From positions 1,542,357 through 1,606,356 of the forward strand of contig NMRA01000012.1 of NCBI GenBank assembly GCA_002633005.1: 64,000 nucleotides of DNA, in the 5' to 3' direction. The stretch is from Phoronis australis. Taxonomy: Eukaryota; Animalia; Phoronida. Within the stretch, counting starts at the first letter, position 1; every line of letters starts with the position of its first letter. This document shows, in pieces, positions 7,286-60,786 of this stretch. Below the pieces are notes generated by a model. It saw nothing but the letters and a program-made list of their open reading frames with translations. It had not been told where the DNA came from and ran no database searches. Position numbers and translations under genes: made by a program.

Positions 7286-7435
7286 GGTATCATGGCAATC
7301 ATTATGATCATTCCGGGAGACATCTTTACGCTGATCGATTTCTTCAGTTTCACCGCTTGGTTGATCTATGGCGCCAATATGCTTTCCTTGATCGTAATGA
7401 GGTTTACGAAGAAAGACGTCCCCAGACCTTATAAG
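7286..7435 (+). CDS. SLC7A9: SLC7 (b(0,+)AT/LAT-type) amino-acid transporter light chain, internal exon
   Basis: TTTTCCAG acceptor and AAG|GTGAC donor. 150 bp encoding GIMAIIMIIPGDIFTLIDFFSFTAWLIYGANMLSLIVMRFTKKDVPRPYK, typical of SLC7 TM9-10 and the RPYK motif. Upstream exons are not seen in the window. Confidence 0.88.
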
Positions 7436-7469
7436 GTGACTAGTTCAATACGATGTTATATGACGTCCA

Positions 7470-35100: not shown

Positions 35101-35756
35101 TGCACAACACAACATACTTTCCCGCAATAGATGATTCATAAGTTCTTTGCAGATTTTTCAAGTCTGGTGGGTTTCAACTAAACCGTTCAGTGATTTTTAT
35201 TACTTTTGAACACACGGGGGACATTTTGGACGGGTTCCAAATGTTTTTCAGAAACACTCAAGCATTGCTTCTATTTGACGAAAAGTCTCTACATGTTCGT
35301 TGACAAATCTTTTTTTTTTGCTGCAGGTGCTAAAATAGAAATAAAATCATTCGCCCACAAACTTTAAACCAAGACTGTGACCACAATATTATGTACAAAT
35401 GTAGTTTGTCATGTTTTAGAATAATTTGTGGAATGCAGTGATGACCTCTATTGGTCCAAAATTTAAGCACACGTACTTGAATAAAATGATTTATCGCGCC
35501 CCTCGGCTAAGAACTAAGCCAAAAGGAAATTAATTTGTGATAATTATTTAACCACAATGATACTATTCACATACCATGAAATGACTCATTGGTTATGATT
35601 ATTGTGAAATGAGTTTCGCAGTCAGCAGTGAGTGTAAAAGTTATCTTGGTTTTGGAAGTACTTATGAAGATTTCTACTTTGAAACTGACGTGACGTAGAT
35701 CTTCTAAAGTAGGCGTATTTTACTTGTAGGGAGATGAGCATCAGACACTTCTGGCA

Positions 35757-38700: not shown

Positions 38701-41700
38701 CGGCGCGCTCAGCAACACCAGAGAAGACTAGACCTTCGTTTCCCATGAGCCTTGGTTTAATGCCCGTCAGCAAGAATTCACCATCACCGGTGCTAACATC
38801 AACCAACAAATCGGATAATAACATCAAAGTGAATTCACTTCTTACCTCTGGTGGAAGCTTAATTAAACACCACACGGAAGAAAAAGCAGACGCCATGTAC
38901 GGTCAACCAGCAGTTGCTACAAGCGCTCTTTTAGCACAACTTGAAACAGGTTTTCCCAGAGTCAAATCCAAACCAGTTCATGGGCTTATAAATGAAGGTC
39001 TCCATCACTGCCTGAACTGTGCCTTTGTAGCGAGTAGTCCAGCAGAACTGAGACGACATATCATTCTTCACTCCGAGGAAAAGCCATTTCGCTGTGAATC
39101 TTGCGAGTATCAAACAAAATGGAAATGCGATCTGAAGAAGCACGTGCAAGCTTATGGACACCGAACCTCAACCAAGTTTGTTGCTCGCTCAAAAGCAGGT
39201 CGTATGAATGAATCGCTGAATTTATCTTCAGAAACCACGGTCAATAATTCATATCAAGAGGACTATGTTCAAACAAATGAGCGCGACCAAAAGGACCCCC
39301 TGCTTCAATGCGAGTCTTGTGATTATACCACCCACAAGCGCCATCTGCTGGAAAGTCACCAGAAAATTCACGAAAAGCCGGGACAGGTGCAGGGCAATAA
39401 CAAGTACAAATGTAAACAGTGCCAATTCAATGCCAACGACTTGCCATCATTCCTTCAACACAAAGTGGAACACTCCAACCAACAGGCTCAGCGAGCAGCA
39501 GCAGGCTCACCAGCCTCGGTTGCAGACGATGACGTGAAAGCCAGGGAAAACTGCCATTCCCCGAAACAAGGAAGACATTCTCGCAAGCCAACTAAAAAGA
39601 TTTACTGCTCACTGTGTCCCTTTGCTTGCGTAGACCCAGTGAGAATGGAGTACCACAACAGAATGCATGTCGAAAGGTCAACGTTTACGTGCAATTTCTG
39701 TTCATTCAGCGTTGAAGACAAGAATGAAGTCGAACACCATATGCACATTCATCCCGAGTATACGCGGACATACATTCCATCTGTCAATCTAGAATCGTCA
39801 ACAAGTGACCCTTTCCCAACCGCTGAAGGCTACGAGATAACACGCAAGGGTAATCGTAAACTTTACCAGTGCAAGAAATGTCCGTACAGCAATGAAAGTC
39901 ACGGAAACATCACTCGGCATGTTGAGAAACATGGCCAGAATTCCAAGTACAAATGTCCGAAGTGTGATTACAGCTTGGATCGCTTGAATCTCCTTCTTCA
40001 GCACACTCGAGGTGTTCACGGAATACACGACGCGGATAAAGTGTGGCTCAACTACAGCAACTTCATGCAGTCTGTTTCTCAGCTGAAGCAGATGAGACAT
40101 CATAGTCCCCGAGGTGCGTCAGAAGAGAAATCTCCACAGCTAGAAGTGCAGAAGGAATATCAGATTAGTGACAATCCCAGAAACTTGGCTGTTCGCGGCG
40201 GTGCCATGCAAGTTGTGTTCCGTGGAGTGAAGCATAAAATGTATAAATGTCCGAAGTGTCCGTATAAGTCAAAGAAGGAAGTAAACTGTCATAATCACAT
40301 TCGAATGCACGGCACGCACGGAAGTTTTATGTGCAGCCACTGCGACTACGGCGCCAACAAGATGGAGATAGTCAAGCGTCACATGGAAAATGTCCACAAT
40401 GACGTAGACGCACTTGTCTTGATTAACAAACCGCAAGAGACGACCCAAACCATCGCAGGGCATGTGACTCCAAATGAAGGAAGATGCGTTGATCATGAAA
40501 CAGCTGAATTCTTTCCTAGGCCTCAGGTAATGGAGATGGAGGCCGATGAAAAACTTCCAGCTGAGGAGGGAGAAAGTGACTATGCTACGTATAGAGAGAA
40601 TGTAGTCACGCCGACAAATCAGGAAGCCCGCCCTTTCTTTCCAAAGCCCAGACACAAATCTCCGATGTATGGTTCTCCAAAGCTGCGTCGCTGTAACATT
40701 TGCCCATATGCTGTTAAAGGCAGACTTCCTTTTGAGAGACACATGGAATGTCACAATAAAGACGGTCGCTACACATGTAAACACTGCAATTACAGCCTTG
40801 ACAGACTTAACCTGCTGTATCAGCACATGCAGCTCCATGGAGACATGTCTAAAGACATACCAAGCAAGAATAAGTCCTCCATGAAAATTTTCAATCGAAG
40901 AAAAATGCTTACAGGCGATGTGAAGTCAGATGATTTCACATTCATTCCAACGGGATTTGTCTCAGGCGCTGCAGAAAAAGAGCTATCATATCAGCAAAAG
41001 CGGCTTAACGAACAAATCGTTGACGAAATTAAACGCGAATCTGATCAAGCAGACAGCTCGTTGTTCAAACACACAAAGAATAGTAACAGTGTATTTCCGG
41101 AAAGAGAGATGACAAGTCCTGTCAACAGATCAAATAAGTCCAGTGTGGCAACTGAATCGGACAAATGTGAATTTGTGTGTCACAGCGGAGAAACTAACCA
41201 AGACGAAGGGGACGGCTTTGCTTTAAAACACAATAGCAATGGAACAGCTGTTGATGAATCGTCTTACGATTTGCAGTCTTGCCCAGAGTGTCCTTTCATT
41301 GCTGAGACGGACGAAGAATGCGAAAAGCATTACAAATGCCACGCGAACAGGTACAAGTATCAGTGTGACTATTGTTCGTTTAGTCACGACAGAGTCGACC
41401 TCCTCTATCAGCATCGGAAGTTGCACTCGGACACGGCAGATTTCGATACCAATCCAGACCCGTCAAAGCTCGAAGCTACCCAAGAAGATTTGGAATTGCC
41501 CCTACAGCACAATGAAAGCTTGACCGGAAAAGATGTTGACGAAAGTGGAGAGAGTGTTCCTCCTGCAAAGAAACGACGACTGGGGGAAACAGTTAATAAC
41601 GAAGAAAATGACAGTACCAGAGAAGAGACGGGTGAAGGAATGGAACAGCAGTTAGAACATCGTGTGTGTAGCATAAACGACGCCGACAAACATAGTGTGG

Positions 41701-42134
41701 TTGAGAAACAAGAGACAACGAGTGGCAGGCAAACGCCAGTTTCTCGTAGATCTTCGAGATCTCGGGAAAGGCTGTCAGTGGACAGCGCAGCGGAGACAAG
41801 ACGCGAAAGAAGTTCATCCATGGAGATTAGTATGCAATATTCTGCTGGTGTGTATTGTTGCGAAAAGTGTCCATATACTAGCAACAACAAAGCTAACTAT
41901 TTAAACCACAGCGAGAGACACAAGAAATCGAGTAAATTCAATTGCCCGTATTGCAGCTATAGTACAGGTCGGCACAACCAGTGTTTGAACCACACTCGAT
42001 TGCATTTCGCGTCCGACTCCGAATTCGATATGGACGACGTCAGTGCCAAGATTCTTGAAGCAAGCGCCACGGATACCCAGGATGCGTTTGAAGGGAAACG
42101 TAAACGTACGAAATCCCTGTGTGATCGACAGTGA
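35757..42134 (+). CDS. Large multi-C2H2 zinc-finger transcription factor (2125 aa, about 25 fingers, mostly in pairs)
   Basis: Uninterrupted 6.4-kb ORF with about 25 CxxC..HxxxH motifs, HSEEKPF-type linkers, NLS-like PPKKKRP and PAKKRRL, and PIDLS and PLDFS motifs. An in-frame acceptor TTTTACTTGTAG| at 35729 shows the exon begins at 35730, so upstream exons exist and the true start could lie further 5'. Confidence 0.95.
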   Translation: MAAIGDVSVISDAHDTSHKEICTRDAEFLRIETQVHGETDVLHVEDSGHSLSDDDIGSWTSNGYNDSTHTVNDDNEADYSEQEEVDGDKCIRQHNYTCNDCGLTSSNVKHGQSIASSNCKKCSYATKCKQKLLTHETAHARLDNSEAPLVATKTVGDSSPPRLIVNEQNCVDQEKAITKVEEGMADSNINEQSVENTNVDKHKHNKAAANWSTEQDCQNTEDELDKSAETKTTEETEWAVNNRMDDEDFRKTISVPTHAIPPLDESDSEEEGALFIAEDEAEKGTATPGSKSSEISSLVPASRSPQMSLAEHGELPPKKKRPPRQEIDPNKYKEILDEEGKIKYSCTACGSAYTWKKSLSKHWKEKHDDSKIVRSSGSPLVGNLAKTSALAPQLSARLNCDRIVDKMTSPVGYTPINIPKYMHSRPVFNSLSYFPISGVGTEEDYKEPSRDNGDVYGNPFTEVMHQKSKSDLGRIQPMDQPIDLSIKKEPPEHEDINSAQRQLDIPLDFSMVKDTRDSPRFDAGGFIESSASLQCSKCGQVATDLEEFNKHMELHLTKRGHNCAECRTKFRTSDDLNRHFSDVHRDKILDTAQIAHQMDRGTQQSKSELRQNVGGLNCTECDFIAKWPTELQKHAMVHSSERPFVCMVCNADYKWKWDLVKHFDKSHHSLPNPYRKRDLSPHFKTVELGESLEPARKRKSSEVKHAITDENPPFMCSVCGFHCKFQFQMVLHMREVHEIIVEESDTRGSNGDKMTYVQRHQSELKINIPQQKMYDSDEELELSEMEVPLSSPGTHASARVRESLKQHLTHIKQQPKQPIATSIEKLSSADILLPYKCSLCEYRARWPSEITQHMKNHSDEKPYLCPRCSYRSKWKWDVVKHLKRCGGGTIKDVIDTTKHKTPKYQRSTLPKFIPPGEKFITVPPPHLASSPSPPPAHSSHVKGRPVSEPQDDPATNISNADIPAAHTVLPSTTLSHSPLTPTARSATPEKTRPSFPMSLGLMPVSKNSPSPVLTSTNKSDNNIKVNSLLTSGGSLIKHHTEEKADAMYGQPAVATSALLAQLETGFPRVKSKPVHGLINEGLHHCLNCAFVASSPAELRRHIILHSEEKPFRCESCEYQTKWKCDLKKHVQAYGHRTSTKFVARSKAGRMNESLNLSSETTVNNSYQEDYVQTNERDQKDPLLQCESCDYTTHKRHLLESHQKIHEKPGQVQGNNKYKCKQCQFNANDLPSFLQHKVEHSNQQAQRAAAGSPASVADDDVKARENCHSPKQGRHSRKPTKKIYCSLCPFACVDPVRMEYHNRMHVERSTFTCNFCSFSVEDKNEVEHHMHIHPEYTRTYIPSVNLESSTSDPFPTAEGYEITRKGNRKLYQCKKCPYSNESHGNITRHVEKHGQNSKYKCPKCDYSLDRLNLLLQHTRGVHGIHDADKVWLNYSNFMQSVSQLKQMRHHSPRGASEEKSPQLEVQKEYQISDNPRNLAVRGGAMQVVFRGVKHKMYKCPKCPYKSKKEVNCHNHIRMHGTHGSFMCSHCDYGANKMEIVKRHMENVHNDVDALVLINKPQETTQTIAGHVTPNEGRCVDHETAEFFPRPQVMEMEADEKLPAEEGESDYATYRENVVTPTNQEARPFFPKPRHKSPMYGSPKLRRCNICPYAVKGRLPFERHMECHNKDGRYTCKHCNYSLDRLNLLYQHMQLHGDMSKDIPSKNKSSMKIFNRRKMLTGDVKSDDFTFIPTGFVSGAAEKELSYQQKRLNEQIVDEIKRESDQADSSLFKHTKNSNSVFPEREMTSPVNRSNKSSVATESDKCEFVCHSGETNQDEGDGFALKHNSNGTAVDESSYDLQSCPECPFIAETDEECEKHYKCHANRYKYQCDYCSFSHDRVDLLYQHRKLHSDTADFDTNPDPSKLEATQEDLELPLQHNESLTGKDVDESGESVPPAKKRRLGETVNNEENDSTREETGEGMEQQLEHRVCSINDADKHSVVEKQETTSGRQTPVSRRSSRSRERLSVDSAAETRRERSSSMEISMQYSAGVYCCEKCPYTSNNKANYLNHSERHKKSSKFNCPYCSYSTGRHNQCLNHTRLHFASDSEFDMDDVSAKILEASATDTQDAFEGKRKRTKSLCDRQ

Positions 42135-43856: not shown

Positions 43857-46800
43857 TGAAGTGGTTCATGGAGAATACTATGTACTCACTGACTGGCAGT
43901 TTCAAAATTTGAAAAATAATTTCAAAAGGCAAACAGGAAAATTCGAATTTTAGAACATCCCCCAGATCTAGTGTGGGGCCGGACAGATGCTGAAAGTAAT
44001 ACTAAGAAGAAAGCTGAGAACAACAAGATTTAAAAACATTTAAACTTGTATTTGAGATAATAATGAGTAAACATTAATTACTCTTTAATACAAAATGATT
44101 AGTTGAACATAAGCTCTGAGATTACAGATATAGCCTATATTTTATCAAGATGATTGAAATGAAAGATTCAACATATTTGAACATACATGGTACTGGTTGA
44201 GGAAACTTTCAGGCATGCAATCAGAAAAATTTCCAACAAAAATGTAAAGTATTAAAAGTTGGATACAAAACATTTCCACACTAATACGAAACCTAAAGCT
44301 ACATGCAGTAGTAAGACCAAAGAATTAAAGGTTTTTTAAAACTTTGGTCAGGGTTAGACCTAATTTGATCTGGGGAAACTAGTTCAGCCCATAAAGCAAT
44401 CATGTAAAATCAGGACTTAAGATTTTTCCTGGTAAGAATATGCAGCTTTGAAATGTACCCTATACCAAAAAATAATACTAAAACTGAGATTCTTAAAAAT
44501 AAAAACCCATCATCTCAGTTGACAACTCCTGTTTTCGCCCTAATTCACTGACAAAACTCCCATCACCAGTGTGCAAAAACTAACAATACAATGCAGGGGG
44601 GTTTTGACATACTTAAATTTCTCATAGAGTTAATAAACTTACTTTCACTTTTACCATAAAAAAATATTTGGAAAAATTATGATTCACTTATAAATAGATC
44701 TACAAAAACAGAGGTCAGTGTCCACCAAATGATTACTCATTAGCGCAATGTCAAACTGCTCTCAGCACAGATGCCTTGGTAGTGGTAGATGAGCACTACC
44801 GGACAAAAGTGATCAGAAAAAGTACTGTTTCTCGGTTATGACGGCTAGTTATGTTAACAGCGAAAATGACTGGTAATAACCATTACAGAATGGCTTGGTC
44901 ACCTCACTAATTTTTCTGCTAATTCCCTTCTTTATTCGGTCATGGGGGAAAACTCCTCTAACGAACAATTTGTATTCAGTCCAGCCGTCTTGACGAGTAA
45001 TTTCGCGTCATTTTGTCCGAATACTTTTAGCTTGTACTGTGCAGCGAATTGGTTTCAAAAACATTCAATATCCAATAACAGCTATTCCAAGATGACTTAA
45101 CATTGGTTAAAAAACAACTCATCCTCAGGGCTTGCTTGCACACAACAATACATTATGCAAACAGTTTCAACTGTGGATATAGGAACCAAAATACGCGATT
45201 AAAATTACAGAAATTTCACTTCTTAAAAAGGAGCAAAAATGCATTGTAAAGGCTTTTGTTATAAACACCCTGAAGAAAGTGCACGAAACATTCTAACAGA
45301 TTATCTCAATCACTCACTTAACACTTCTCACCATTCTCAGGTGTGGTGTGGTTTACAGCATCCATCACCAGCATTTTATACACAAAACAACTTTTAGGTT
45401 ATGTAGGACCTTACCAACATGTCTGTGTATATAGGCAAATGACCACAAAACTACCAGGTATCAACTCAGAAATGAATACATTTTTGAAAGCAGAAAACTT
45501 GTAGAAATTGATTTTTGCCTTTTTACAAAACTTAATTTCATCACGTGACCACGTTTTTTTGTAAAATATAGTAAAAAGCAAGGTAAAATGATAGCAGAAC
45601 GACGGCAAAAATAACATGACCAAATTTGGTTTCACATAAATGTTCAAGATGAAGCGTCAAAAATGATGTCATAGTTTTCTAAATTATCATTTTGTTGTTT
45701 TATACAACTTCTGAGTTTTTTCATGAAAAGCATAAAAGTCCAATTTCTGGATGACCATATACAAATTTTAAACATTTTTCTAGGGTAACCTTAACAGCGA
45801 CATAAAAACACCCAAACAATAGCTAATACAGGAGCCAGGATGATACCAGAGAAGGTAGGGGGCAGCACTGCGCAGTGTACCAAGTTGACTGCTTAGGTAC
45901 ACACCCTACACACCACATGTTGAGTGAAGAACTAGTCTTCTTTAAATCTCTGAAAAACAATAACCCATAAACAAGCTTCAACACTAACACGACCATTTGT
46001 TTCTAAATTTCATTCAAGAGCAATGCACAGCTGTGAAATGCTCCCACAATTGCACCCAAGTGGGGTGTTTATTTGTATCATAAAAATGGCCATTAGATGA
46101 CTCAGAATACAAGGAGTCCATTCAAAATTTGGAAGGTGTCGTCATCTCTCAAATTTATTTGTCATTTCTGAAAATCCGTAAAAGAACACCAATTATACAA
46201 AGGCAAACATCAAAAAATAAACTGCCATTAGGAACCACATCAGTAGTCAAATCCATCCATCCATCTGCGGCCAAGTTAATAGGAATACAATTGCAAAATT
46301 TCAAAAACTTCTTAGAAGGGGTTTAGGAGATACAGCCATAGATGCGAAAAAAGTCACTAGGGTGCACCACAGTAGTTAAAATACACGTCAGTCATGCTCT
46401 TGTCAGCAGGAACACATCTGCCAATTCTTATAACGATCCTCTGCACTGTTTAGCACATACAGAAGCGGAAGTCAAAAAAACAGAGTAAAAAATAATTAAA
46501 ATGGTCACTAGTTGGTACAGAATACGTCGAATCCGTCACAAGAAGGAAAGATGCTGTCGTCTTCATGATAGAACTTTGTTTGCCCAATTTCATGAAAAAG
46601 CATCAAGGAACAATAAAGTTACAGAGGCAAAGGTAAAAAATAAAACTGCCACTAGGGAGCAGAGCTGTTGTTGGATTGGTCTTAAACTGGCCAAATTTTG
46701 ATGATTCTTCAAGTGCTTTTGTGGATGGAGAGGGTGATGCCAAAAACGTACTCAAAAATGGTTAAAATGGCCACCAAGTGGTGCAGAATATGTCTCATCC

Positions 46801-48216: not shown

Positions 48217-48435
48217 TCACTCACCCCATTTCTGCAGGACAATGGCTGCAGCAACAAATATAACGGAGAGGATGAACAAGAAGAGCACTACGTCCCAACG
48301 TCGTCCTACACTGGCTGGCAGTGACGTTGAGGTCACAGACTGAGTGACCTTATGAACAGTGCCGGAGTCACCTGAGTCAAAGTTCAACCTGCCTCGTGAC
48401 CTCAGCATTGGCCGCTGGAGTATGGCTGGGGTCTC
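48217..48435 (-). CDS. Chromodomain-transmembrane protein, exon 4 (C-terminal TM helix)
   Basis: TTTTCTTCAG acceptor, phase 0. Encodes ETPAILQRPMLRSRGRLNF...GRRWDVVLFLFILSVIFVAAAIVLQKW, then either reads on to GE* (stop at 48217) or splices at G|GTGAGT (48224) to an unidentified short last exon. Confidence 0.75.
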   Translation of the reverse strand, partial: ETPAILQRPMLRSRGRLNFDSGDSGTVHKVTQSVTSTSLPASVGRRWDVVLFLFILSVIFVAAAIVLQKWGE

Positions 48436-48976
48436 CTGAAGAAAAGCAATCACAATGCATGTTACTAGTGGGACCCTTTGGACGGATCCCTCGGTGTCAA
48501 AGGGCACAAAAGGTCTGTTTTGTGAAAAGCGACTTCAAGACTTTAGACAGAAATTTGGTTTCGCATGATTAAGGGTTTAGCCATGTAATTATTAGCATGA
48601 CATTACAACCAAGAAATAATTTAAACAAGTTATATCTCGGTAAATAGAGATTATGGGTATATTCTCAGATTTTGTATTTTTGCTTTAAAGTGAGATTTAA
48701 TCATTTAAATAAATAGTTGTGTCAAGTATGAGACAAAATTTCTGACTTAAGTCTTTAGTCACTTTTCATGAAAAAGATAACACAAGCCAATATACAAAAG
48801 CATTACCCAAAACCTCATAGGCATTATCAACCCAGGTATATTGTGTAACCTGCTGTCATAGAGCTGATATCAAGCGACAACCCTAAATTACCCAGTTCAG
48901 GTGAAAATTTCACAAATATTTGCACTCAAACACTGATTGACTAATGAACACAAATCAAGGAATCAATTTGCCTTAC

Positions 48977-49177
48977 AAAGTTAGTCCTAGTAGCCGATGT
49001 GACTGTTGTTGTTCTCTGTGTCACTGTTCGCGTATTCTCTGTGACTGTACTGCTGGAGGTATTCTTGGTGACACTGGTCGAGATTCTACCTGCACTAGTG
49101 GCTGCCATTGTCGACGTCCTGCCTGAGGATCTGGTCAAAGGCTTAGTGCTTGACTTGGCAGCTGGCGTGGCCTGAGA
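48977..49177 (-). CDS. Chromodomain-transmembrane protein, exon 3 (Ser/Thr-rich linker)
   Basis: TTGCAG acceptor and TTT|GTAAGG donor; 201 bp, phase 0-0; SQATPAAKSSTK...TTTVTSATRTNF. Confidence 0.75.
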
Positions 49178-49679
49178 CTGCAATGTAAGCAGAGGCAAGT
49201 TACAGGCCACCAAAACCTTTAGATGATGCTGAATTACGTGGACATCATTATGAGCCCTGTACACACAAGTACTGTTGATGGCGGAGGTAACACTCAGAAC
49301 ACAGAACATGAAAAGAAATTAACATGTACATCAACACTGAATCATAGATCTTAAATGGAGGTTTCACTTACCTTATCTTTCTGGAAAGGTGAATGGCACA
49401 TATTGAGGTCACGCTTTCCTGTGATGCCTTTTACGCACAATATCAGGAAGCTGTTCTGTTCATGTTACTAGAAATGTTTTCCATACAGTATCCCCCTGAC
49501 AATTCACTGGCTCTCCTCCATAGCAAATAACTAAATGGAAAGCTTCAGACAAGCTTTCAGTGAACAGACGATGTGCTGACCAGAGCCAACTTAAAAAGCA
49601 CATCATAAGACAAATTTAAATTTTGTCCTAAACAGAAATTATCAAAGTTAGACTCCTGCCTCGTTAATATGATGCAAAC

Positions 49680-49826
49680 CTTTTTAAATGCTTCCAAGAT
49701 TTCTCCACAATCTAGCAGATTTTCTTCAGGCTCCCAACTGTCCTCTTCGGGGCCATACCTTGCCCACCGTATGTAGTACAAGTTGGATTTTCCTGGCCTC
49801 TTTTTCATACGCAAAATTCGCTCAAC
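49680..49826 (-). CDS. Chromodomain-transmembrane protein, exon 2 (chromodomain body)
   Basis: TTTCATTTAG acceptor and AAG|GT donor; 147 bp. VERILRMKKRPGKSNLYYIRWARYGPEEDSWEPEENLLDCGEILEAFKK is a canonical HP1/CDY/MPP8-type chromodomain. Confidence 0.92.
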
Positions 49827-50719
49827 CTAAATGAAACAAATATTAGCTTGTGAACCTCTTTAATAAATACTCCTTGTGTAACAAGTTCTATATGCTGGAT
49901 TCCCTTTTTTCTTTTTAGACATAAGATTAAGTCTCTTCTTCATTTACAAAATCAAATTGGCTAAATCAATGCCACTGCTCTCACTAGCTTAAAATTTTCA
50001 CCCGAAAAACAACTCTAGAAACGAGAACACTGTCAAGGGTTGCGTTTAATGGCTCTTTGCTGGCAATTACCTCGCAACTGTTGAAACCTTTGCAAGCACT
50101 AGATCATTTACTTCAAAGGACATATTTGCAGTGGCCTGTATTTACTGTTGCGTTAATTTTTTTCAGAGAAACCCTAACAACGGATCAGTTATTGTCATTC
50201 AATTATTGCGAGATCTCACAAAAACTATGTCTTGCTATACGTACAACATTCATAGTCCAAACAGAAAAGTTGAAAGTGCAAAATCAACTGCTGCACACTC
50301 GCCCGAGGAAGTGAGTCGTAGTCACAAGTAAGCAAGTAAGCAAAAAATTATTTTGCATCAGGGAAGACAAGTACAACAACAAAACGTCAGCACACGTGCT
50401 AGTAACCGATAAGAAATAAGAAATTAAGCAAAGTGAATATTTACAGTATTTGTAAAGGCAGACCATGAACATAACATATAGAACAAATGACAATGAGGTA
50501 CAGAAAGCAAAATATTGCATGGACTCACTAACAGCAATCCCAAGTATCCTTGACAATGACACAGAAATTTTAAATGTTTGCCAGTTTTAAAGTCAAGAAC
50601 GTCCGCGTAGTAACATAGTTCATTTTGCATTCCAGAGAGAAACTCCTTGATGACGAATTGAGTTTGTATCGTAGGTTGCAGTATTGAACCAGGTAACAAC
50701 TAGCCTACCAATGTATTTT

Positions 50720-50862
50720 CGGTAAAAGTCAAGTGAATGGGTCCCTCTTCAAAATGGCTACCGGGAACCAGTTTTCACTAAATAACAGACATTGCCATTA
50801 CTCAGTAAAAACTGCTTCCTGGCAGCCATTTTGAAGAGGGCTCATTTAATTGACTTTTACCG
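50720..50862. mobile_element. Foldback/MITE, imperfect hairpin with arms of about 65 bp
   Basis: CGGTAAAAGTCAA..CCCTCTTCAAAATGGCT... is mirrored by ...AGCCATTTTGAAGAGGG..TTGACTTTTACCG. Confidence 0.75.
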
Positions 50863-50904
50863 CATTTCCTTTTCAAACATTGTGTGGCATTGTTTTCGGT
50901 AGCC

Positions 50905-51974
50905 TTGGTACAAAGCTATAACTACATATACAGCTTTGCACCGATGTGGGTAAAAAAGTGTTAAGATAAAATCTGACACAAAATTAGTTACATTAAAAGC
51001 TAGTCTTCCTTGCGTAAACTAAATTATTTAACGGTGTTGGAAAAAATGGCGTTCTACCGTTATTCTGCTGCTAAAGTTTTGGAGCGAACTTTAGCGACGA
51101 CTTTCGGTGCCACGAAATATTGCGTCACCTATTGGCCAGTTTCTTTTTTCGCTGATTCTTCAATCAACTGTAGTTATTCTTTCACGAGGTTGTGTACACG
51201 TCATGCAACAAATTATCATAACTGGTTTCACTTCAATATAAGTTTCTAGAATTTTGATACCGAAAAACCGAATTTCAGAAGAAATTTTGCAGTTGCCAAG
51301 CTATCATCATCTCCTGAGAGATGTCGCAAAAATTTATGAAATGGCGTGTGCCCGTGACACGAGCGTATTGTTTTCAAAACGACGACAGCTAGCTGTATGA
51401 AGACTATTGACAAAATACAGCTAGGTACCACTGTGTGTATTTCTTCCGCAGACCCTGAAATTGCACACAGTCAGGTTAGTTCTGCTCATCACCTCGCCGT
51501 GAAACTTGTATCAACATGTAAAGCTAAAGACAAGACGGGGTGCATGCAAAATCTGGGAATCAACTGACACTCACCTTGCCCGTTACAGCCGTTTAAGTGA
51601 AAAACAATGCAATAAACGTCATTTTCTTGCCTAACTCACCGCTAATTTTCTAACAATGAAAAGTATGTCATCGTTTTGAAAACAGTACGCTCCTGTCACG
51701 CCCACGCGCCATTTCCTAAATTTTTGTGACACCTCTGATGATAGCTTGACAGCAACAAAATAACGGTAGAACACCATTTTTTCCAACACCGTTAAATAAT
51801 TTGTACTCAAGAAAAACTGTAGTTTTTAATGACACTAATTTTGTGTCAGATTTTATCTTACCACTTTTTTACTCACATCGGTACAAAGCTGTATATTTAG
51901 TATACACCTTTGTACCAATAAAGGCTAAGTGGTACCTAGCTGTATTCCGATGATAGTCTTCATACAGCTAGCTG
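50905..51974. mobile_element. Composite long-inverted-repeat element(s)
   Basis: 50905-51070 and 51284-51385 are reverse complements of the contiguous block 51663-51918; 51386-51432 is the reverse complement of 51928-51974. Confidence 0.75.
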
Positions 51975-52251
51975 GATGGCTAGGTTTTTGGTTCAAAGCA
52001 TTTCAGGGACTAGACAGTGACCACCATCTCCATCTGTAGGTAGCCCCAGAGCCAGACGGTGAAGGAGCTTAATTCAGCCTTAATTGCCTTAATTCATATG
52101 CCGGAAGCTTTTCAACGATGTCTTCAATTCCTTTCAACTCGAACGAGCACTCTCGCAACTTTTTCAAGCAGTCCTTCGTGCATAATGCTTTACTTTTTTT
52201 AGACAACAGAACAAATTTACTGTGGATTATAGAGTGTAGGACGGTTGCTCT

Positions 52252-52359
52252 CACAGGCGTCCTCAGCTTCTGATCGTCCCCAATACACTACATATAATAC
52301 TACAAGGTAGTATTATATGTAGTGTATTGGGGACGATCAGAAGCTGAGGACGCCCTGTG
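52252..52359. mobile_element. 108-bp palindromic MITE with 8-bp TSD (hAT/P-type)
   Basis: Perfect 48-bp arms (52256-52303 / 52307-52354) around an AAG loop; CACAG...CTGTG ends; GTTGCTCT duplicated at 52244-52251 and 52360-52367. Confidence 0.9.
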
Positions 52360-52537
52360 GTTGCTCTCTGATCTCATACCAGGGGAAAATATGTGACATA
52401 AGATCTAACAAATGCATACTAGATATTAAGCTTACTGGCATCATTTAACAGATGTCGTAACCTAAACAGAATTGGGTGATATATTTCTTTGTTATGAGTC
52501 ATCGGGAAATTTAGGTGGACTAAGACTAAGAGCTTAC

Positions 52538-52555
52538 CTCGTAAACTTCCGCCAT
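52538..52555 (-). CDS. Chromodomain-transmembrane protein, exon 1 (MAEVYE)
   Basis: AAAATGGCG start context and GAG|GTAAG donor. Supplies the YEVE start of the chromodomain, including the first cage aromatic. CpG-rich flank. Confidence 0.82.
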
Positions 52556-52590
52556 TTTCAAATTTGACGCGTTTGGAAGCGCGCCTAGCG
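52549..52590 (-). promoter_or_regulatory. Promoter-proximal motifs of the chromodomain gene (YY1-like, CHR-like, E2F/MCB-like)
   Basis: On the minus strand: GGCGCGC (52579-52585), ACGCGT (52567-52572), TTTGAA (52557-52562) and AAAATGGCGG over the ATG. Confidence 0.4.
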
Positions 52591-53819
52591 GAGAATACGG
52601 CACAATAACAACCACCGTAAATTTCTGGTCAAATGCCCATCCTGTACCGAGTTGCATGAAACACGGTCCCGGCAAATCAGGGACTCAAATAAGGTCCTTA
52701 AATCTACTGCGTATTTGTGGACACTGATTGTATTTTCCGATGCTGTTTTAGTTGCAGTACTAGTTCAATTCTGACTTTGATTATACAAATCGAGAGTGAA
52801 CTCTACCTTGAAGTAAATCATCACTGCCAAAATAACGGAGTAGAGTATTTTCATGCAACGCTGTTAACTTAAGGACTGAATCGCTATTCATTTTCAGTTT
52901 TTAGGTAAATTTAAGAAAATGTCAGAAGTCAAACAGGAGCACGTAGTTAAGGTAATCAGATTGCAGAAAAAGATTGGCATTTGTGAATAAAACTGACAAA
53001 CTATTTTCCGTTACTAACAAGAACATCCGGGACATCGGGCAAGAACAATAAGTGGCTAATCCATGTATTGCCTGTGACCGTTCATTTGGAAACATAAAAT
53101 GCTATTTTATTACGGAAAGGAATATCACGAGAGTCTAATTCGATTTCTGTTTTTAATTCAGCTACTGAAACACTGAGGAAGCCGGAAAACCAGCTTGGAA
53201 AATTTTCGGACTTTTGTTTAAGTCTGTTATCTCACGACTCCATCAAAACGATGTCTGTAAGTTCTGTATTTTTTAAATTAAAATTAAATGGAAAAGCACT
53301 AGGAATCAGCTATTTACAATAGACTAAGCCTAATCAGCCCCACTGAGGCCAAAGCTAGACAACACAACAACAATTTCGTATCCTCTGTGAAATGGAAAAT
53401 TTACAGACGTGAACTGCGAATTTACATTAACAAAATGTCGGAGCCTCTTAATTATTCCATACAGTAATAACAAATTCAACGCGCACGTAACGTGTGGCGC
53501 TCCGCTTAGACTAAAACTGAATGAATCATGAACGATTGGGTGCAAAATTAAAATTATTAACTTCACGTTCCGTACATTATTTCCGTGAAATGCGTAAACA
53601 GCTTAATTTTTTATCAATTTAAGATGTCCGAAAAGGCTGGAATTTGGAACGGCTATTTTTCAATTTACAATATCAGTAGTTTCGTGATTCGATAAAGTTT
53701 AGAGAACGGCTGTGTATTTCACGACCAATGTATTAATTTTTTAAATCAAATTCTTAAACATTTGCAGAAGAGCAAGTTCCATGGCAAAGTCTCGATCCAA
53801 ACTGATCTTAGTCTACCTA

Positions 53820-54300
53820 CTTAAAGGTATATGTGCGACCCTACAAAATGCCCAAATTTAGCCAGCTTCGGAGTCGTTCTTAGAAATGACAGCTGATTGT
53901 ATTCATTTGAAAGTTTCACTGAGATAGTATGCTTTATACACAGTTCTCTAAGACGCTTACTTTTGTACGAGGGTCTAGCTAAAGTTGAACTTTTATGATT
54001 ATCAAAACTTAAGTTGTGTAAAATGAAAACGGGATAATTTTATTTTTTAGAAAACTGCAACAATTTTTTAGAGATCCTGAACATTTATATTTTAAAACGA
54101 AATCGATATCTTTGTCCTACCGTCGACGTACCTTCTAAAAAGACATGGTCACGGTCACATGATCAATATCAGATTGGTAAAAAGTCAGAAAACGAATTCT
54201 GCAAGTTTTCAACTTTCAAAAAAAAATATATATATACTTTACAGGGGGTTAAAATCTGAAGGCTTTCGGTTGGCTAAATGCACAGTCGTGTCGACAACTA
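53820..54300. repeat. Second copy of the dispersed repeat seen at about 7470-8430
   Basis: Shares GACCCTACAAAA, CTAAAAAGACATGGTCAC and CTTTCA.AAA..ATATACTTT motifs. Confidence 0.45.
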
Positions 54301-57300
54301 GGTCTTCCGTAACCTTGAAAATTTTGCCGAATAGGCAGCAAAATGATACCCTGGTATTTCAGTAACGTCTACGAAAACGAGAAGAAATCACACTTGCAGT
54401 GTAGGTCATTTGATTTTACCCAACTCCCTGACCTATGTTTACATGATCATCCGGGTATCTCTAGATAGTCTTGCTGAAATGCATGTGCTCCGATTGCTAT
54501 TGCTGGCGTGAAGCCGTGACATTCGCGGTTAATTTGAAAATCGCGGAGTGTCACTCAGCTACAGATCGTGACAAGCGCAAAATAATAAAAAATAAATAAA
54601 TAAATCGCCTTCGGCTTAAGTTACGACAACCCTTTAGGAACATATCAGTGACTTCTTTAAAACATTTTTAACACAAAAATCGATCTGTTGAAGACACGTG
54701 CTACCTGTCGTAACCGTCGACCGTTTCTTGTAAAGCAAATGGCACGTGACCTTGCCTTTCAATTACATTTGATCATGGTGGTTAAATCAATGCTGTGTTA
54801 TGGGAAGAAAGTTTTAACTGTAATCAGAGTAGTCTGTTTTCAGCATCATGCCCCATAGTAACTCTTTTACCAGCACTGAATATAGAGCCTACTGAATTGA
54901 GGTGCGTGCACTTTTAGTGTAGTTGAATTTTATAATTTTATTGTATGGGACGGAATAGGTATAGCTACGACCGCTGCATATATTTCTATACTGTATTTTG
55001 TTTTTTTTCTTTGGGATAGTGATCTTTTAGCGGCACTTGGTTTTGTTTGTCCCCTCTTTTAATTGCGGCATAAACTCATGGGTAGCTATGGCCTCAGTCG
55101 CTTTAAGCTGCTGCGAACCCGCCTTCCGCCAAGGACAGATGCCAACATTAGATCAGGTCAAATTTACTTAATAACCAAATTCGAAAAGTGGGATTGAAAA
55201 AAAGACATTTCGTTATTGTTTCAGACCAGGCTCAGCAAAATCGTTGGAGTCCAATTTCACAGCGCTTTACCGCGGCAATCAAGTTCAAGTGTACGTCATG
55301 AGACGGTATAGTTTGGTGGATTCCAAAGAAATAGTGAGTTGACGCTATGAGTTATGCAAAAACTACATTCACCACGACTAACCCCGAAGTCTTACACATG
55401 GGTCAGGACCGAAGGAAAATGCCGTGTCAGTGGCAGCCGGAAGATGTTAATTGTATGATTGCAAGTTACAACAATTTCTTTTTCTACTGCGCGGTTGGCG
55501 TTAGTTACTCGCCTATCCAATGTCACAGCGACACCTAAATCATAGCCTTGAGAAAGAGTGCATAGACCCTATTACTAAACTAAAGTGAATGAGTTTTTGC
55601 TGATCAAGGAGCAGCTACGCTATTGCGTAATTCAAGGAGCTTATAGTACATAAAGAATACAACTCGTGGTTGCTCAGGGTACTGCCACAACAAGGTAGTT
55701 CTCACTTATCAAGATAACACAAATACCTAGAACCCTATTACTTTGTATTCAACACAATTTAAGGTCAGCTGATTTTCAAACCAATCTAACCTCAACACTC
55801 ACATGCTGGTGAAAGGGTCATTGTTATTCATGTGTTTTGTGTTAAAGAACAACAATCAAAAGTAGCTGTTTAGCTGGTCAACTGTTGCTTCCTAAGAGTA
55901 ATTGAAATAGTCGCCAGTTTGGCCAGCACAAGAACACTGTGTTACTAGAGCCCAGTCTTATAAACTGGTGAAGAAAGCCAGTTGTGAAAATAGTGTGTAC
56001 TCATTGATAAAAGACACGTCTTAGCGTGCAGAACAATTTGGTGAACAGAGCAAGAAGTTAGATAAGATCAAGTGAACTTATATTTACTAACTGTCCTTAA
56101 CAAACAACAAAAGTGATCAATACACATTCCTCAATTTGCACTGTGTAAGCGCATAATTCTATCTTTAATATTATTCCAATATTAAATAACAAAATATTGC
56201 CACAGGTCATAAAACATACCACTGCAACACATCCAAACAATGAAAGATAATCACCAGGTGGTGCTAACGAGGAATGGCACTTTTTTTGTTGAAGGCGCAA
56301 CAACCCAGTGTTATGTTGTTCCTTTCGCAGACTGAAAGTGTTTTATGGAGTTGAAAACAGCTAGCAGATCATTACTGAATCAGACCCTGATCAACAAGTT
56401 GGCTCGCCACAGCAGAACAGTTTCAACCAATCAAGACCATCAGGGTTAATTTCAGGCGCTATCCCTTTCAAATCGAACAAGGGATAAGAATGCAATGAGG
56501 GTTACTTGGAAGAGCAAATACGCCTGTGAAGAAAGTCGTTTTTTGACTCCATAACAGAGTTTGTAACGGCCTTAACTGAATACATGTAGGACAGAAAAAA
56601 TGCTCACAAGTACAAGAATGCTTGTGGGGTGAGGATCCCGCTTAAGTCACTATCTGAATACATAACTTTTTACTGGAAAGACCGTTTTCCCTACTATTAA
56701 ACACCACCTAGTGAAATTTGAAGTCCACATTGTTCCCTCCACCTGTATCACCCAAGTCCCTGTAGTGCTGAAACTGAATGGTTCTTCCAAGTCACTGAGC
56801 AAACGAACGTTTTCCACATTGCACCACCAGACACGTTACCAAGTCAGAAAACCTTTATCTACATTCAATATCTTTGGAAAACATGGAAATACAAGCTTTA
56901 AAGTAGATAAACTGTCAACAATCTTGAAGATATTTCAAGCATTCAGACACACACCAATCTTAATCTGAGCACTGTAATTGTTGTATAACTACATTAACAT
57001 ATTAACAATCTATCCATATGCATCCATATATTGATCAGTGGAGGTGAAAGTGAACATTTGCTAGCAGTACAAATGACCTGTCTTCCTGGGTTCTTAAGTT
57101 ACCAGAGCCTGTGGCTTAAACCATACACAAGAGAGCATAAGAAACCCAAGGAAATAGAGTCAAAACTTTGTTTACCAAACTTAACTTTGGACTCCAATTC
57201 CCATTTATTTCATCCTTACCCATGTGTCATTTTTCAAATTCAGACATGACACGCAACAACTGTAGCCATTTATCAATTGTCATAATTCCATTGTCTGCTT

Positions 57301-57357
57301 CATAATCTTGATGTCCAACACTTAACCTCAAAGTCCCCAACCCATATTTCATTGCTA

Positions 57358-57504
57358 TCAAGCGGAAAAGAGATCGCCAGCAGAGGGCAGTGGTGCAAGT
57401 CCTCCAGTTATCTCGGGTAACCGTGTTAGATCTGGTAAGTTCTTTATGTGTGACTCTAGCTGCTCACGAACTGTGTTGACCTTGTTCAGCTTCTCCTTAT
57501 ATTC
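57358..57504 (-). CDS. RPRD1B: RPRD1A/B-like, last exon
   Basis: EYKEKLNKVNTVREQLESHIKNLPDLTRLPEITGGLAPLPSAGDLFSA* matches the RPRD1 C-terminus; CTTCTGCAG acceptor. Confidence 0.93.
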   Translation of the reverse strand, partial: EYKEKLNKVNTVREQLESHIKNLPDLTRLPEITGGLAPLPSAGDLFSA

Positions 57505-57526
57505 CTGCAGAAGGGCGTACACTTAA

Positions 57527-57665
57527 GTCATTACCACAGCAACAGGTGGCACTAACAATTCAGAAGGTCATACACTAAGGTCATTGCCACAGCAACAAGT
57601 AGCACTAACAATGCAAAAGGTCATACACTAACTATAAAGGTCATTGCTACAGCAACAGGTAGCAC
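57527..57665. repeat. Intronic tandem repeat, unit of 53-60 bp, about 2.5 copies
   Basis: GTCATT.C.ACAGCAACA.GT.GCAC at 57527, 57580 and 57640. Confidence 0.85.
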
Positions 57666-57900
57666 AAAAGATGCAGACCAAAGAATACTGGGACAATAAT
57701 GACAACAATTGGAAAGAGTCAATACACAACCATTAAAATCCACATATTCATTGGCCTCATAAAACTAATCACTGTACAAGGTAGTATTCAGCACGAGGCA
57801 CATGAAGTTTCCAACAATGTTCCTATCATGCACACATTGAAAGGTTTTCACCAAAATGCCAAAAAATACACATCAACATTTGACTTGGGAATAACTTTAC

Positions 57901-58076
57901 CTCCAACTTCTTCTCGGACAGAGACAACTGTTCCTTCTGACAGACGATGAAATCTTTTAACATGACCGCCAGTGTTTTACGCTCATCTAGTTCTGTTGCC
58001 AGCCGTCTGTTATATTGATCCAGCATGAGGCAGGCATCATCCACTGAGGCAGTCAGCTTATTTGCTGACTCCTTAT
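57901..58076 (-). CDS. RPRD1B: RPRD1A/B-like exon (coiled coil)
   Basis: DKESANKLTASVDDACLMLDQYNRRLATELDERKTLAVMLKDFIVCQKEQLSLSEKKLE; 176 bp with AG/GT borders. Confidence 0.93.
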
Positions 58077-58309
58077 CTGTAAAATACCATAGCACAAATG
58101 AGTGATCCACATGACCTGGTGACAATTTTGGTGCTGTAGATTCTTTCTTCCCAGTAATCACAGTTTGGTCTGTAGAATATTCTTACTTCAGGCTCGATCA
58201 TACGAAGCACCGGCCTTGGAAAGGAACCCAAAAATCACCTACAAATAGGAAATTCTGACCCCAAAACAAAGCTTTAACCTTGGAAAGGAAGTAGTTACGT
58301 GTACCTTGA

Positions 58310-58560
58310 AACACCATTCTCAAACAGACCCACGCCCTACACCACAGTGCCTCCACACCATACTCAAACAGACTCAACCTCCCACACCACCATGCCTTCA
58401 TACCATACTCAAACAGACCCACGTCCCACACCACCATGCCTTCATACCGTACTCAAACAGGCCCGTGTCCCACACCACCATGCCTTCATACCACAACACA
58501 TGACCCATACCACCATGCCTTCATAACATGCTCAAATACACACACGGCCCACACCACCAG
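58310..58560. repeat. Intronic minisatellite, unit of about 44 bp
   Basis: CCATACTCAAACAGACCCACGTCCCACACCACCATGCCTTCATA repeated with variation. Confidence 0.85.
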
Positions 58561-58578
58561 TTATTGTACAGGACCCAC

Positions 58579-58705
58579 CTTTTATTTTCTCTAGCTGCGA
58601 CACATCCGACACTTCTTGTGGAAGTGCTGCTATTTTTTCTCTTATGGCTGCGTCACTCGACGCGGAATGTTCCAGTTCTGACAACAGCTTGACTAGTTCG
58701 TCAGC
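58579..58705 (-). CDS. RPRD1B: RPRD1A/B-like exon
   Basis: ADELVKLLSELEHSASSDAAIREKIAALPQEVSDVSQLEKIK; 127 bp with AG/GT borders. Confidence 0.93.
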
Positions 58706-58983
58706 CTGGAAAGAATTGCACCTATATACTGACATACCAATTTCTCTTCTAAATGACAGCTGGCGAACTTTTGCAGCAATCATGTTGGAACATTTCTCTC
58801 TCAGCTGCCAAACACGATTTACACACTCCAGCTTTTCTGTTGTAACTGTGGTCAAAAACTGACACAGCCACAAAAGTTAATTATTATTAAGATTAAAATA
58901 CAAAATCTCAATGTTTTTTGAGGCAAAACATCACCTACGGAAGGTGGACTGAGGTCTAAATATCAATGATGACATTATCTTAC

Positions 58984-59540: not shown

Positions 59541-60298
59541 TTAAAACAAGTAAACAGTATAAAATCTGCAGTTGCATACTACAAATTGTTTACATTGTAA
59601 ATGTTTCAACATCGCTCTGCTAACTGTCTTGGGTATCAGCGGTACAAAGTGATTAGGTACAAAGACTCTGTCCTTTTCTAATGACCCTTTCCTTGTCCAC
59701 ATAATATACAAGCATTGCCCAGTCTCGCGCCTCCTAGGTTCGATAAGACCATGTAGGAGATGCCTCAATCTCTCACACTTGGGCAAATTTGGATAGACAG
59801 AGAACACAGGTCTTCTGAGTACGCTACATAGGGCAAGCAAGTGTATACAGCAACTCCACATTTTGTCCTTCACTGTCAGTCTAGCTTCACTTTCCACTTT
59901 ATTTGTGTCTGAGTTTCCGGTCGTTTGCGTAGACAATGACATTACAAAGTACGTAGATGTGGAGAGGGCACCAGGATTTTCACTAGCCTGCTGAAATTTT
60001 GGATGTGTCGCGTAATATGTAGAATTCTCGCACAGCTCTGCAGCAGTCAACATCTTTAGTGGTCTGGACAGGCTGTAATCACCCGCATACACCAGAGACA
60101 CAGAGTTGTAAAGGCAATTGCCATCAGACAAAGTCTTCATTGGTAATAAGTCTTGGCCTATGTCATAAGGAAGAATAGACATGGACATTTTATCTACATC
60201 GGTTGGGCTCTGAACACTGCGCCTTGATTTGAGGTCTAGCAATTTGTATAGCTTGTCACTCAACTGTACTGTGTCCACTCCATGCTGTACGGCATTAG
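59541..60298 (-). CDS. Vertnin-like OTU-fold cysteine protease domain, nested in an RPRD1 intron
   Basis: Open frame of about 250 aa with PMKTLSDGNCLYNSVS (Cys codon 60114-60116), W...IHLLALCSVLRRPVFSVYP and IMWT...PNHFVPL (His codon 59649-59651). Strong acceptor TTTCTTTTGTCTTGTTTCAG ending at 60299. Confidence 0.8.
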
Positions 60299-60786
60299 CT
60301 GAAACAAGACAAAAGAAAGCTCCGATATAAGTGCTGGACATGGTGATAAAGTTTTTCAATACTTATAATTTACATCTACCTGAAACCGGCCATCTGATCT
60401 CTTAATAATATAAAAAGTAGATAAACATCTCCATACGACAGAACTGTTTTTTCTCTATGATTCCAGCAGAATTTGAATGGACCGACTTGAATGTTTAAAT
60501 AACTCAATTTACAAAAAATCATGCAGATTAACAACTGATATTGTTTTGTTGTTATTTTTTAATGTCAAATACTGCCAGTCTCCGGTGTGTTGAGACTCAT
60601 TGACTTTGTAATATGAACCTGTTACAGTGTATGTTATTAGATGTGAGGCGTTTTAAAACAAAAGACAAAAAGCAGGCTTTTCACCCTCTAGAGGCGACTA
60701 GTATCCTGCCTCCCAAGATCAATTACGATGTTGCTAGTTGAGTGTCTCCCACTGCGTTCCAACGTGGATAAAAATCACAAGACTAA

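Follow-up and report, generated by a model that had tools for sequence, protein, structure and literature searches.

According to our analysis, the minus strand of the window (the whole stretch of 64,000 nucleotides of Phoronis australis DNA) carries a gene that joins an N-terminal chromodomain to a hydrophobic C-terminal tail, and this gene is real and expressed (Table 1). The four exons set out in the earlier note have AG/GT ends, are all in phase 0 and give 194 aa on translation. RNA reads were taken from three raw runs sharing the species label, with joints counted per run; for the contig run X4 the exons lie outside its RNA coverage. The exon 2-3 joint (49177/49680) is crossed by 6+1+5 = 12 reads and the exon 3-4 joint (48435/48977) by 11+4+7 = 22 reads over the three runs, all oriented as a minus-strand transcript predicts, and the chromodomain exon is joined by them in frame to the tail exon.

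Table 1. Features of the chromodomain-tail gene (positions within the window)
Feature	Position	Strand	Remarks
Exon 1, coding part	52538..52555	-	6 codons, with Y5 and clasp residue V4; ATG and GTAAGC donor
Exon 2	49680..49826	-	Chromodomain body (W27, Y30, L44); RNA-covered, donor joint of 12 reads
Exon 3	48977..49177	-	Basic Ser/Thr-rich linker; both joints in RNA, 12 and 22 reads
Exon 4	48225..48435	-	Linker end (TP site, RxxL-x-F motif), then hydrophobic segment; acceptor joint of 22 reads
Predicted single transmembrane helix	48235..48291	-	Residues 171-189, then 5-residue tail; mean hydropathy 3.3
Exon 5, coding start	45942..45949	-	Final two residues, then TAA; target of the loose ends of reads exiting at 48225
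Probable 3' UTR, about 1.8 kb	44090..45941	-	3' end approximate; same-strand RNA depth

Exon structure and transcripts

Exon 4 had been taken for the last one, and a fifth exon at 45949, found by RNA, had been missed; an extra downstream exon does exist, but it adds only two residues and leaves the length at 194 aa. Nine reads of run X1 exit at 48225 and their loose ends map to 45920-45949, across an intron with a GTGAGT donor and the acceptor TTTTTCAG. The spliced C-terminus is QKWEI, replacing a QKWGE of equal length, and since some coverage in X1 continues beyond 48225, a transcript left unspliced here may end in QKWGE. Same-strand RNA depth is about 7-18 across 44234-46068 and drops below 44234, with candidate poly(A) signals at 44936 (AATAAA) and 44089 (ATTAAA).

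No joint 52538/49826 (exon 1-2) is found among the thresholded RNA joints listed, so that the evidence for exon 1 comes from sequence and homology. It is one of 2 candidate exons of the form ATG..[FY]E, then GT, within 49827-57800, a rival first exon at 50112 would also give an aromatic at the first cage position, and the genes of relatives are split at the same position as the exon 1/2 boundary. A wrong gene model, with the tail coming from another frame or transcript, seems to us hardly credible: the way from chromodomain to tail is spanned by no single read and exon 1 has no RNA joint, but the consecutive joints are in phase 0 in all three runs, independent RefSeq models from other phyla have the same layout, and none of the 8 coding variants in the RNA reads is a stop or frameshift. 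Four of these 8 are synonymous versus 25% expected (p 0.11, not significant), and two read variants, F174C and V165G, fall in or near the tail.

Chromodomain

Exon 2 alone matches Pfam Chromo with E 2.2e-16 (60 bits against a cut-off of 25.1), and a word-index search with it gave 1 unrelated match from 13 candidates. Among solved structures MPP8 is the top sequence match (E 8e-10), and CDYL2 is among the best relatives (E 2.5e-9). The three-aromatic cage proposed in the earlier note (Y5, W27, Y30) is present in the translation, with Y5 depending on exon 1; it aligns with Y7/W29/Y32 of CDYL2, while the clasp V4/L44 aligns with the hydrophobic clasp L6/L46 of that protein. Among the aligned members of the family described below, the tryptophan and the third aromatic are conserved in 18/18 and the first aromatic in 16/18.

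Some features of this domain speak against a role of the protein as a chromatin tether. The two hemichordate members carry a Cys in place of the first cage aromatic, a feature that deprives CDYL1a of binding (PMC2787366). In Polycomb-type domains a hydrophobic clasp and a weakly acidic surface (net -2 here) accompany weak binding, little discrimination between K9 and K27 and potential ligands other than histones (PMC3013012). CDYL1b requires multimerisation besides its chromodomain (PMC2787366), and exon 1, with Y5, has no joint among those listed from RNA.

The absence of chromoshadow (PF01393), ankyrin and enoyl-CoA-hydratase domains, noted before, is borne out by Pfam, which finds only Chromo up to the stop in exon 5; exons 3 and 4 match no Pfam family, and no domain other than Chromo appeared in a Pfam scan of 6 relatives. 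CDYL and CDYL2 also have their chromodomain at the extreme N-terminus, with cage and clasp in the same register, and in CDYL a splice site at the domain start separates the first cage residue (PMC2787366); unlike them, our protein has a hydrophobic tail in the place of their enoyl-CoA-hydratase-like domain. CDY/CDYL membership was rejected, there being no such Pfam match in exons 3-4 or in the 6 relatives and the RNA setting the stop in exon 5. HP1 (CBX1/3/5) has an E/D clasp, whereas a V/L one (V4/L44) is found here, and membership was rejected on the missing chromoshadow and polar clasp; MPP8 was rejected on the length of 194 aa without ankyrin repeats or any further domain, and the LEM-domain and LBR families were ruled out, as Pfam finds only Chromo.

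A structural model of the Lingula member has the chromodomain, an unstructured linker and a terminal helix, modelled confidently, and its top fold matches are H3K9me3-bound chromodomains (Oxpecker/Rhino/Chp1/HP1; Z 9.3-10.1, rmsd 1.0-2.4, 53-61 residues). By Pfam score, by this fold and by its three cage aromatics, the domain qualifies as a chromodomain of the methyl-lysine-reading HP1/Pc/CDY type. The ESM Atlas gave no usable feature hit for two members, and its TM matches, to CDYL, MPP8 and HP1 clusters, all stayed below 0.5, which speaks neither for novelty nor for absence.

Linker and hydrophobic tail

The linker is basic, of low complexity and Ser/Thr-rich, as had been described, with Ser/Thr at 45 of its 113 residues. 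The 19-residue hydrophobic stretch of the earlier note holds at residues 171-189 (48291-48235), the best 19-mer of the protein by mean Kyte-Doolittle value; the RR, said to adjoin it, lies two residues upstream (RR-W-D). By hydropathy scan the protein has one hydrophobic segment, no more than about 30 residues from its C-terminus, and no signal peptide, as expected of a tail-anchored protein. The tail segments of relatives have a hydropathy of 1.96-3.21, and 17 relatives have no hydrophobic N-terminal signal. The soluble part is of 18.8 kDa and pI 10 here and of 15-28 kDa in 17/17 relatives.

In sequence the linker scores higher than shuffles against the relatives from Lingula, Ptychodera and Diadema. 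Every one of 19 members has 2-6 S/T-P sites. An RxxL-x-F/L motif, of a form associated with cyclin docking, occurs in only 5/19 members, and a cyclin-docking role is therefore not claimed.

Family across animals

A hydrophobic 19-mer no more than 35 residues from the C-terminus is present in 22/34 other proteins with a single N-terminal chromodomain and in 3/226 multi-chromodomain proteins, in a protein set obtained by a search seeded with family members. The 22 proteins come down to about 18 genes once isoforms and near-duplicates are merged, and they include P0256 and P0258, whose ends resemble intron read-through (the cluster mates of P0258 carry a proper tail). The 12 without tail comprise 1 HP1, 8 apparent partial models beginning at the conserved intron and 3 unexplained; Cimex P0040, with three chromodomains and a hydrophobic end, was left out of membership. 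The layout recurs in six animal phyla (corals, echinoderms, hemichordates, brachiopod, octopus, ticks), with members from Diadema, Strongylocentrotus, Lytechinus, Amphiura, Apostichopus, Holothuria, Ptychodera and Glandiceps among echinoderms and hemichordates, and from Lingula, Octopus, Ixodes, Dendronephthya, Paramuricea and Acropora.

Relatives retain the hydrophobic tail, and the architecture, for which the earlier note knew of no characterised animal protein, spans multiple phyla; in-frame RNA joints and the kept tails together support it. In the literature searched we found no description of a chromodomain and membrane-tail family. Members are automatically labelled CDYL- or HP1-like though they are without the second domains of those families, and the basis of the CDYL-like label is the chromodomain alone. 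The RefSeq isoform P0269 of Acropora muricata is without the tail, an observation that counts against the tether.

Chromodomain exons might have been shuffled repeatedly onto unrelated tail-anchored proteins, in which case members would differ in function, and this we regard as quite improbable. Members are ungrouped in a 55-column chromodomain tree (7 label changes), one clade of them appears in 0/200 bootstrap trees, and the linker is clearly above shuffles versus only 3/17 relatives, all of which would fit repeated origin. However, the AU test does not reject a single clade (p 0.41), the label is clustered (14.7 changes when shuffled), an intron directly after the first cage residue is common to family members, and size and order are uniform.

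Proposed function

We propose that the protein is probably a one-chain, tail-anchored reader in the inner nuclear membrane (INM) that holds H3K9me or H3K27me nucleosomes against the envelope; it would both bind methylated H3 and reside in the INM, as a single-chain counterpart of LBR with HP1, or of CEC-4. Its C-terminal segment would likely enter the ER post-translationally as a tail anchor, with the N-terminus facing the cytosol or nucleoplasm, and the protein could then diffuse to the INM via the pore membrane, because only about 19 kDa of it are soluble. This is under the limit of 60-75 kDa quoted for passage from outer to inner membrane (PMC6359192); it counts against the proposal that any small tail-anchored ER protein, such as LRRC59, can reach the INM without function there (PMC6359192). 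Retention at the INM might be provided by the chromodomain on methyl-lysine and by the basic linker on DNA, with membrane confinement supplying the avidity that HP1 and CDYL draw from chromoshadow or crotonase oligomers, and mitotic release may come with phosphorylation of the S/T-P sites in the linker.

We think it unlikely that the protein belongs to the ER or another cytoplasmic membrane and binds a methylated non-histone partner through its chromodomain, or that it is a reader kept on the membrane and set free by proteolysis or alternative splicing. Hydrophobic-clasp chromodomains do bind non-histone methyl-lysine sequences (PMC3013012), and soluble release would agree with the tail-less Acropora muricata isoform and with the soluble 127-aa form that skipping of exon 4 would give (computed only). 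No exon-4-skipping joint is present among the 15 of 62 RNA joints listed, which is weak evidence since only these 15 are listed; the protein's small size and its basic linker speak for retention in the nucleus, and the 6 relatives scanned have no further conserved domain hinting at a cytoplasmic role.

Less probable still is a main role at mitotic exit or fertilisation, where the protein would draw ER membranes onto chromatin as the envelope reforms, in place of steady anchoring of silent domains. The basic linker with its S/T-P sites, found in all 19 members, resembles that of the mitotically regulated LBR as it is portrayed in PMC3172257, but the cage, kept in 16/18 members, suggests that binding to a specific mark is under selection, and bulk reassembly would have no need of such binding.

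The steady INM tether can be set beside known systems. The LEM domain binds BAF, reads no histone mark and is absent here by Pfam; to our knowledge, CEC-4 of C. elegans has no transmembrane helix. LBR combines a Tudor domain with eight spans and contacts H3K9me through HP1, whereas here reader and single predicted span belong to one chain. With LBR and HP1 our protein would share the link of an integral INM protein to H3K9me chromatin, as outlined in PMC12339402, and with emerin and other LEM proteins a small N-terminal chromatin module, a disordered linker and a C-terminal anchor, with the tail-anchored route to the INM sketched in PMC6359192. CEC-4, by the descriptions in PMC5788517 and PMC4783997, has a single chromodomain, no chromoshadow and a C-terminal part that directs it to the inner nuclear envelope, where it anchors H3K9me chromatin, and so a chromodomain protein at the envelope can anchor chromatin (PMC5788517); unlike our family, and compared by description only, it is presented there as worm-specific and without obvious mammalian homologue.

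Evolution and significance

Direct recognition of H3K9me2/3 by lamin A/C or LBR is called unknown in a 2025 paper (PMC12339402), and CEC-4, the one demonstrated chromodomain anchor, is described as restricted to worms (PMC5788517). We suggest tentatively, as possible rather than probable, that a one-chain INM tether for methylated histones is ancestral to cnidarians and bilaterians, that most marine invertebrates and ticks have retained it and that vertebrates, flies and nematodes have lost it, with LBR-HP1, PRR14 and CEC-4 as later replacements; within this reading, the losses would explain why the tether was never found. If true, no tether could be simpler than this small single-pass protein with its own reader, conserved from corals to sea urchins and ticks; it could also become a portable tool for relocating marked chromatin to the envelope, and our view of the nucleus of ancestral animals would change. 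CDYL may share its N-terminal chromodomain exons with this gene, the crotonase domain replacing the membrane tail, and the database labels 'CDYL-like' and 'HP1-like' conceal a distinct architecture.

Gene structure and expression

The earlier note had described four minus-strand exons with canonical ends in phase 0, and according to our analysis their coordinates are correct and give a product of 194 aa with the cage residues Y5, W27 and Y30. Exon 2 is, as claimed, a chromodomain (Pfam, E 2.2e-16), and the hydrophobic stretch lies at residues 171-189 with a mean hydropathy of 3.3; exons 3 and 4 have no family match in Pfam. The DNA of the window has introns and an animal-like character. Raw RNA from three runs that share one species label, each read to about 18-19%, covers exons 2-4 on the expected strand, and the joints of exons 2/3 (12 reads) and 3/4 (22 reads) were both seen in 3/3 runs, so the chromodomain frame continues into the hydrophobic segment. 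A wrong gene model is unlikely, though one correction is needed: exons 1-4 were placed properly and the choice of last exon was wrong, since a fifth exon exists. In one run, X1, nine reads exit exon 4 at 48225, with loose ends at 45920-45949, and the exon 4/5 junction has a GTGAGT donor and a TTTTTCAG acceptor. The fifth exon alters the last two residues and leaves the length at 194; the 3' UTR continues from it, with RNA cover down to about 44100-44200, and plus-strand RNA near the neighbouring zinc-finger frame extends to about 43866, close to this 3' end.

Exon 1, whose joint is absent among the RNA joints listed for the three runs, is supported indirectly, by sequence comparison. The 8 kb upstream contain two ATG..[FY]E|GT candidates, this exon being one of them, and all nine hand-picked partial relatives either begin at the same Val or carry unrelated sequence ending in Q directly before it. 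Isoform X1 of the Octopus sinensis relative (P0296) has another first exon, departs exactly at the exon 1 boundary and loses the cage aromatic, as in CDYL1a; in human CDYL1 a splice site is described right where the chromodomain begins, which takes away the first cage residue in CDYL1a (PMC2787366). A candidate mini exon within intron 1 would likewise provide a cage aromatic; it has no joint among the RNA joints listed. The inverted repeats of the same intron, which attract many reads from elsewhere on both strands, are MITE-like.

Features of the gene and its neighbourhood in the window
Feature	Position	Strand	Remarks
Candidate alternative mini first exon	50112-50123	minus	ATG, two codons, Phe-Glu, GTAAAT donor; within intron 1
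Nested inverted repeats and perfect 48-nt palindrome	50921-51901 and 52256-52354		intron 1; arms 82, 88, 52, 47 nt
CREPT/RPRD1-matching exons	57829-58876	minus	PF16566; upstream neighbour, same strand as the gene
273-codon open frame	59544-60362	minus	OTU-like cysteine protease match, PF02338, E 2e-5
2134-codon open frame	35730-42131	plus	large C2H2 zinc-finger exon
Amino-acid permease exon	7259-7684	plus	PF13520, weak
N gap	8548-9096		near permease exon

A family with the same layout

An exhaustive search with exon 2, with the best 150 of 978 matches listed, returned mostly multi-chromodomain proteins. A strongly hydrophobic 19-mer occurs in 4 of the 151 proteins collected up to that point, and two of those, from Diadema setosum and Dendronephthya gigantea, have the layout of the window protein; searches seeded by these two (one with the best 120 of 480 matches listed) and cluster look-ups gave further members. 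Among the 264 proteins collected, 34 have a single N-terminal chromodomain, and a hydrophobic segment lies within 35 residues of the C-terminus in 22/34 of these versus 3/226 multi-chromodomain proteins, in a set biased by a search profile built from members; the 22 include isoforms and correspond to about 18 genes. The proposed combination of chromodomain and C-terminal tail recurs in other invertebrates. In a protein from Cimex (P0040) a hydrophobic segment at the C-terminus goes with three chromodomains; it could be a separate kind of membrane-anchored protein or an artefact of annotation.

Members are named from octocorals, stony corals, sea urchins, a brittle star, sea cucumbers, two hemichordates, Lingula, octopus and Ixodes, which we take to be six phyla. 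Databases list them as 'chromodomain Y-like', 'heterochromatin protein 1-like' or 'uncharacterized', and Chromo is the sole precomputed Pfam family on them. No vertebrate, fly or nematode name occurs on tail-bearing proteins among the matches listed, and we know of no human, fly or worm chromodomain protein with such a tail.

In all 19 members examined the tail has a hydropathy of 1.96-3.3 and is followed by 1-30 residues. In 17/17 relatives the soluble part is of 15-28 kDa, and a hydrophobic N-terminus is absent. Linkers vary, with a net charge of at least +4 in 13/19, about zero in sea cucumbers and ticks and negative in octopus. Of the cage residues, the Trp and the third aromatic are present in 18/18 and the first aromatic in 16/18, with Cys at the first position in both hemichordates, whose members (P0233, P0225, P0227, P0239) have long and short linker isoforms with the tail kept in each. 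When the Lingula member is modelled with AlphaFold from a 17-row alignment, the chromodomain and the terminal helix come out with high confidence and the linker with low confidence; H3K9me3-bound chromodomains are the closest matches to the model in fold.

Possible function

Tail-anchored ER proteins are marked by a single hydrophobic helix at the C-terminus and a short neutral tail behind it, here of 5 residues, and through such a helix the window protein would enter the ER. Small tail-anchored proteins are described as diffusing to the inner nuclear membrane and staying there if retained, with a size limit of 60-75 kDa (PMC6359192); retention would here be provided by the chromodomain and the pI 10 linker. 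The avidity of HP1 and CDYL1b is reported to come from oligomerising (PMC2787366), for which, we infer, membrane confinement could substitute. The tail-anchored chromatin tether suggested in the earlier note is plausible, and it is strengthened by the recurrence of the layout across a multi-phylum family. An ER-side reader, or one that can be released, is a rival to which Acropora muricata isoform X2 (P0269), devoid of the tail, lends support; a role in nuclear envelope reassembly is another.

As a tether the protein is predicted to act in the manner of CEC-4, which is described as specific to worms (PMC5788517, PMC4783997, PMC7111258), and of LBR plus HP1 (PMC12339402), and it has the same layout as emerin. 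Membership of the CDYL, HP1, MPP8, LBR or LEM families was rejected, as their defining second domains are absent. Drosophila HIPP1, which has a crotonase domain and whose chromodomain is degenerate, is reported as a CDYL homologue (PMC6385973), so CDYL-type genes extend into protostomes; a link between CDYL and the membrane-tailed family is a lead only. We found no description of this architecture in literature titles and abstract starts, and exact phrases for it returned 0 papers; tables of envelope proteomes or domain surveys in supplements could mention members.

Origin and expected ligand

A tree of 55 columns, built from 18 members and 32 other chromodomains, none of them a true CDYL or MPP8, is mostly without resolution, and the tail label needs 7 changes on it versus 14.7 when shuffled. 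One clade of members appears in 0 bootstrap trees, and the AU test does not reject it (p 0.41). The window linker aligns above shuffles with Lingula (0/500), Ptychodera (1) and Diadema (2); for the other 14/17 relatives the alignment does not clearly exceed the shuffled ones. Repeated independent fusions could also have produced the layout; from the layout and the intron position, a single origin of members is likely.

Out of 49 solved matches, MPP8 and CDYL2 are nearest in sequence to the window chromodomain, and V4/L44 match the positions of the CDYL2 hydrophobic clasp as described in bioRxiv 10.1101/820647. Because in Polycomb-type domains such a clasp is reported to go with poor K9/K27 discrimination, and also with lower affinity (PMC3013012), we expect binding of both K9 and K27 marks and not of K9 alone. 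The clasp residues differ in other members.
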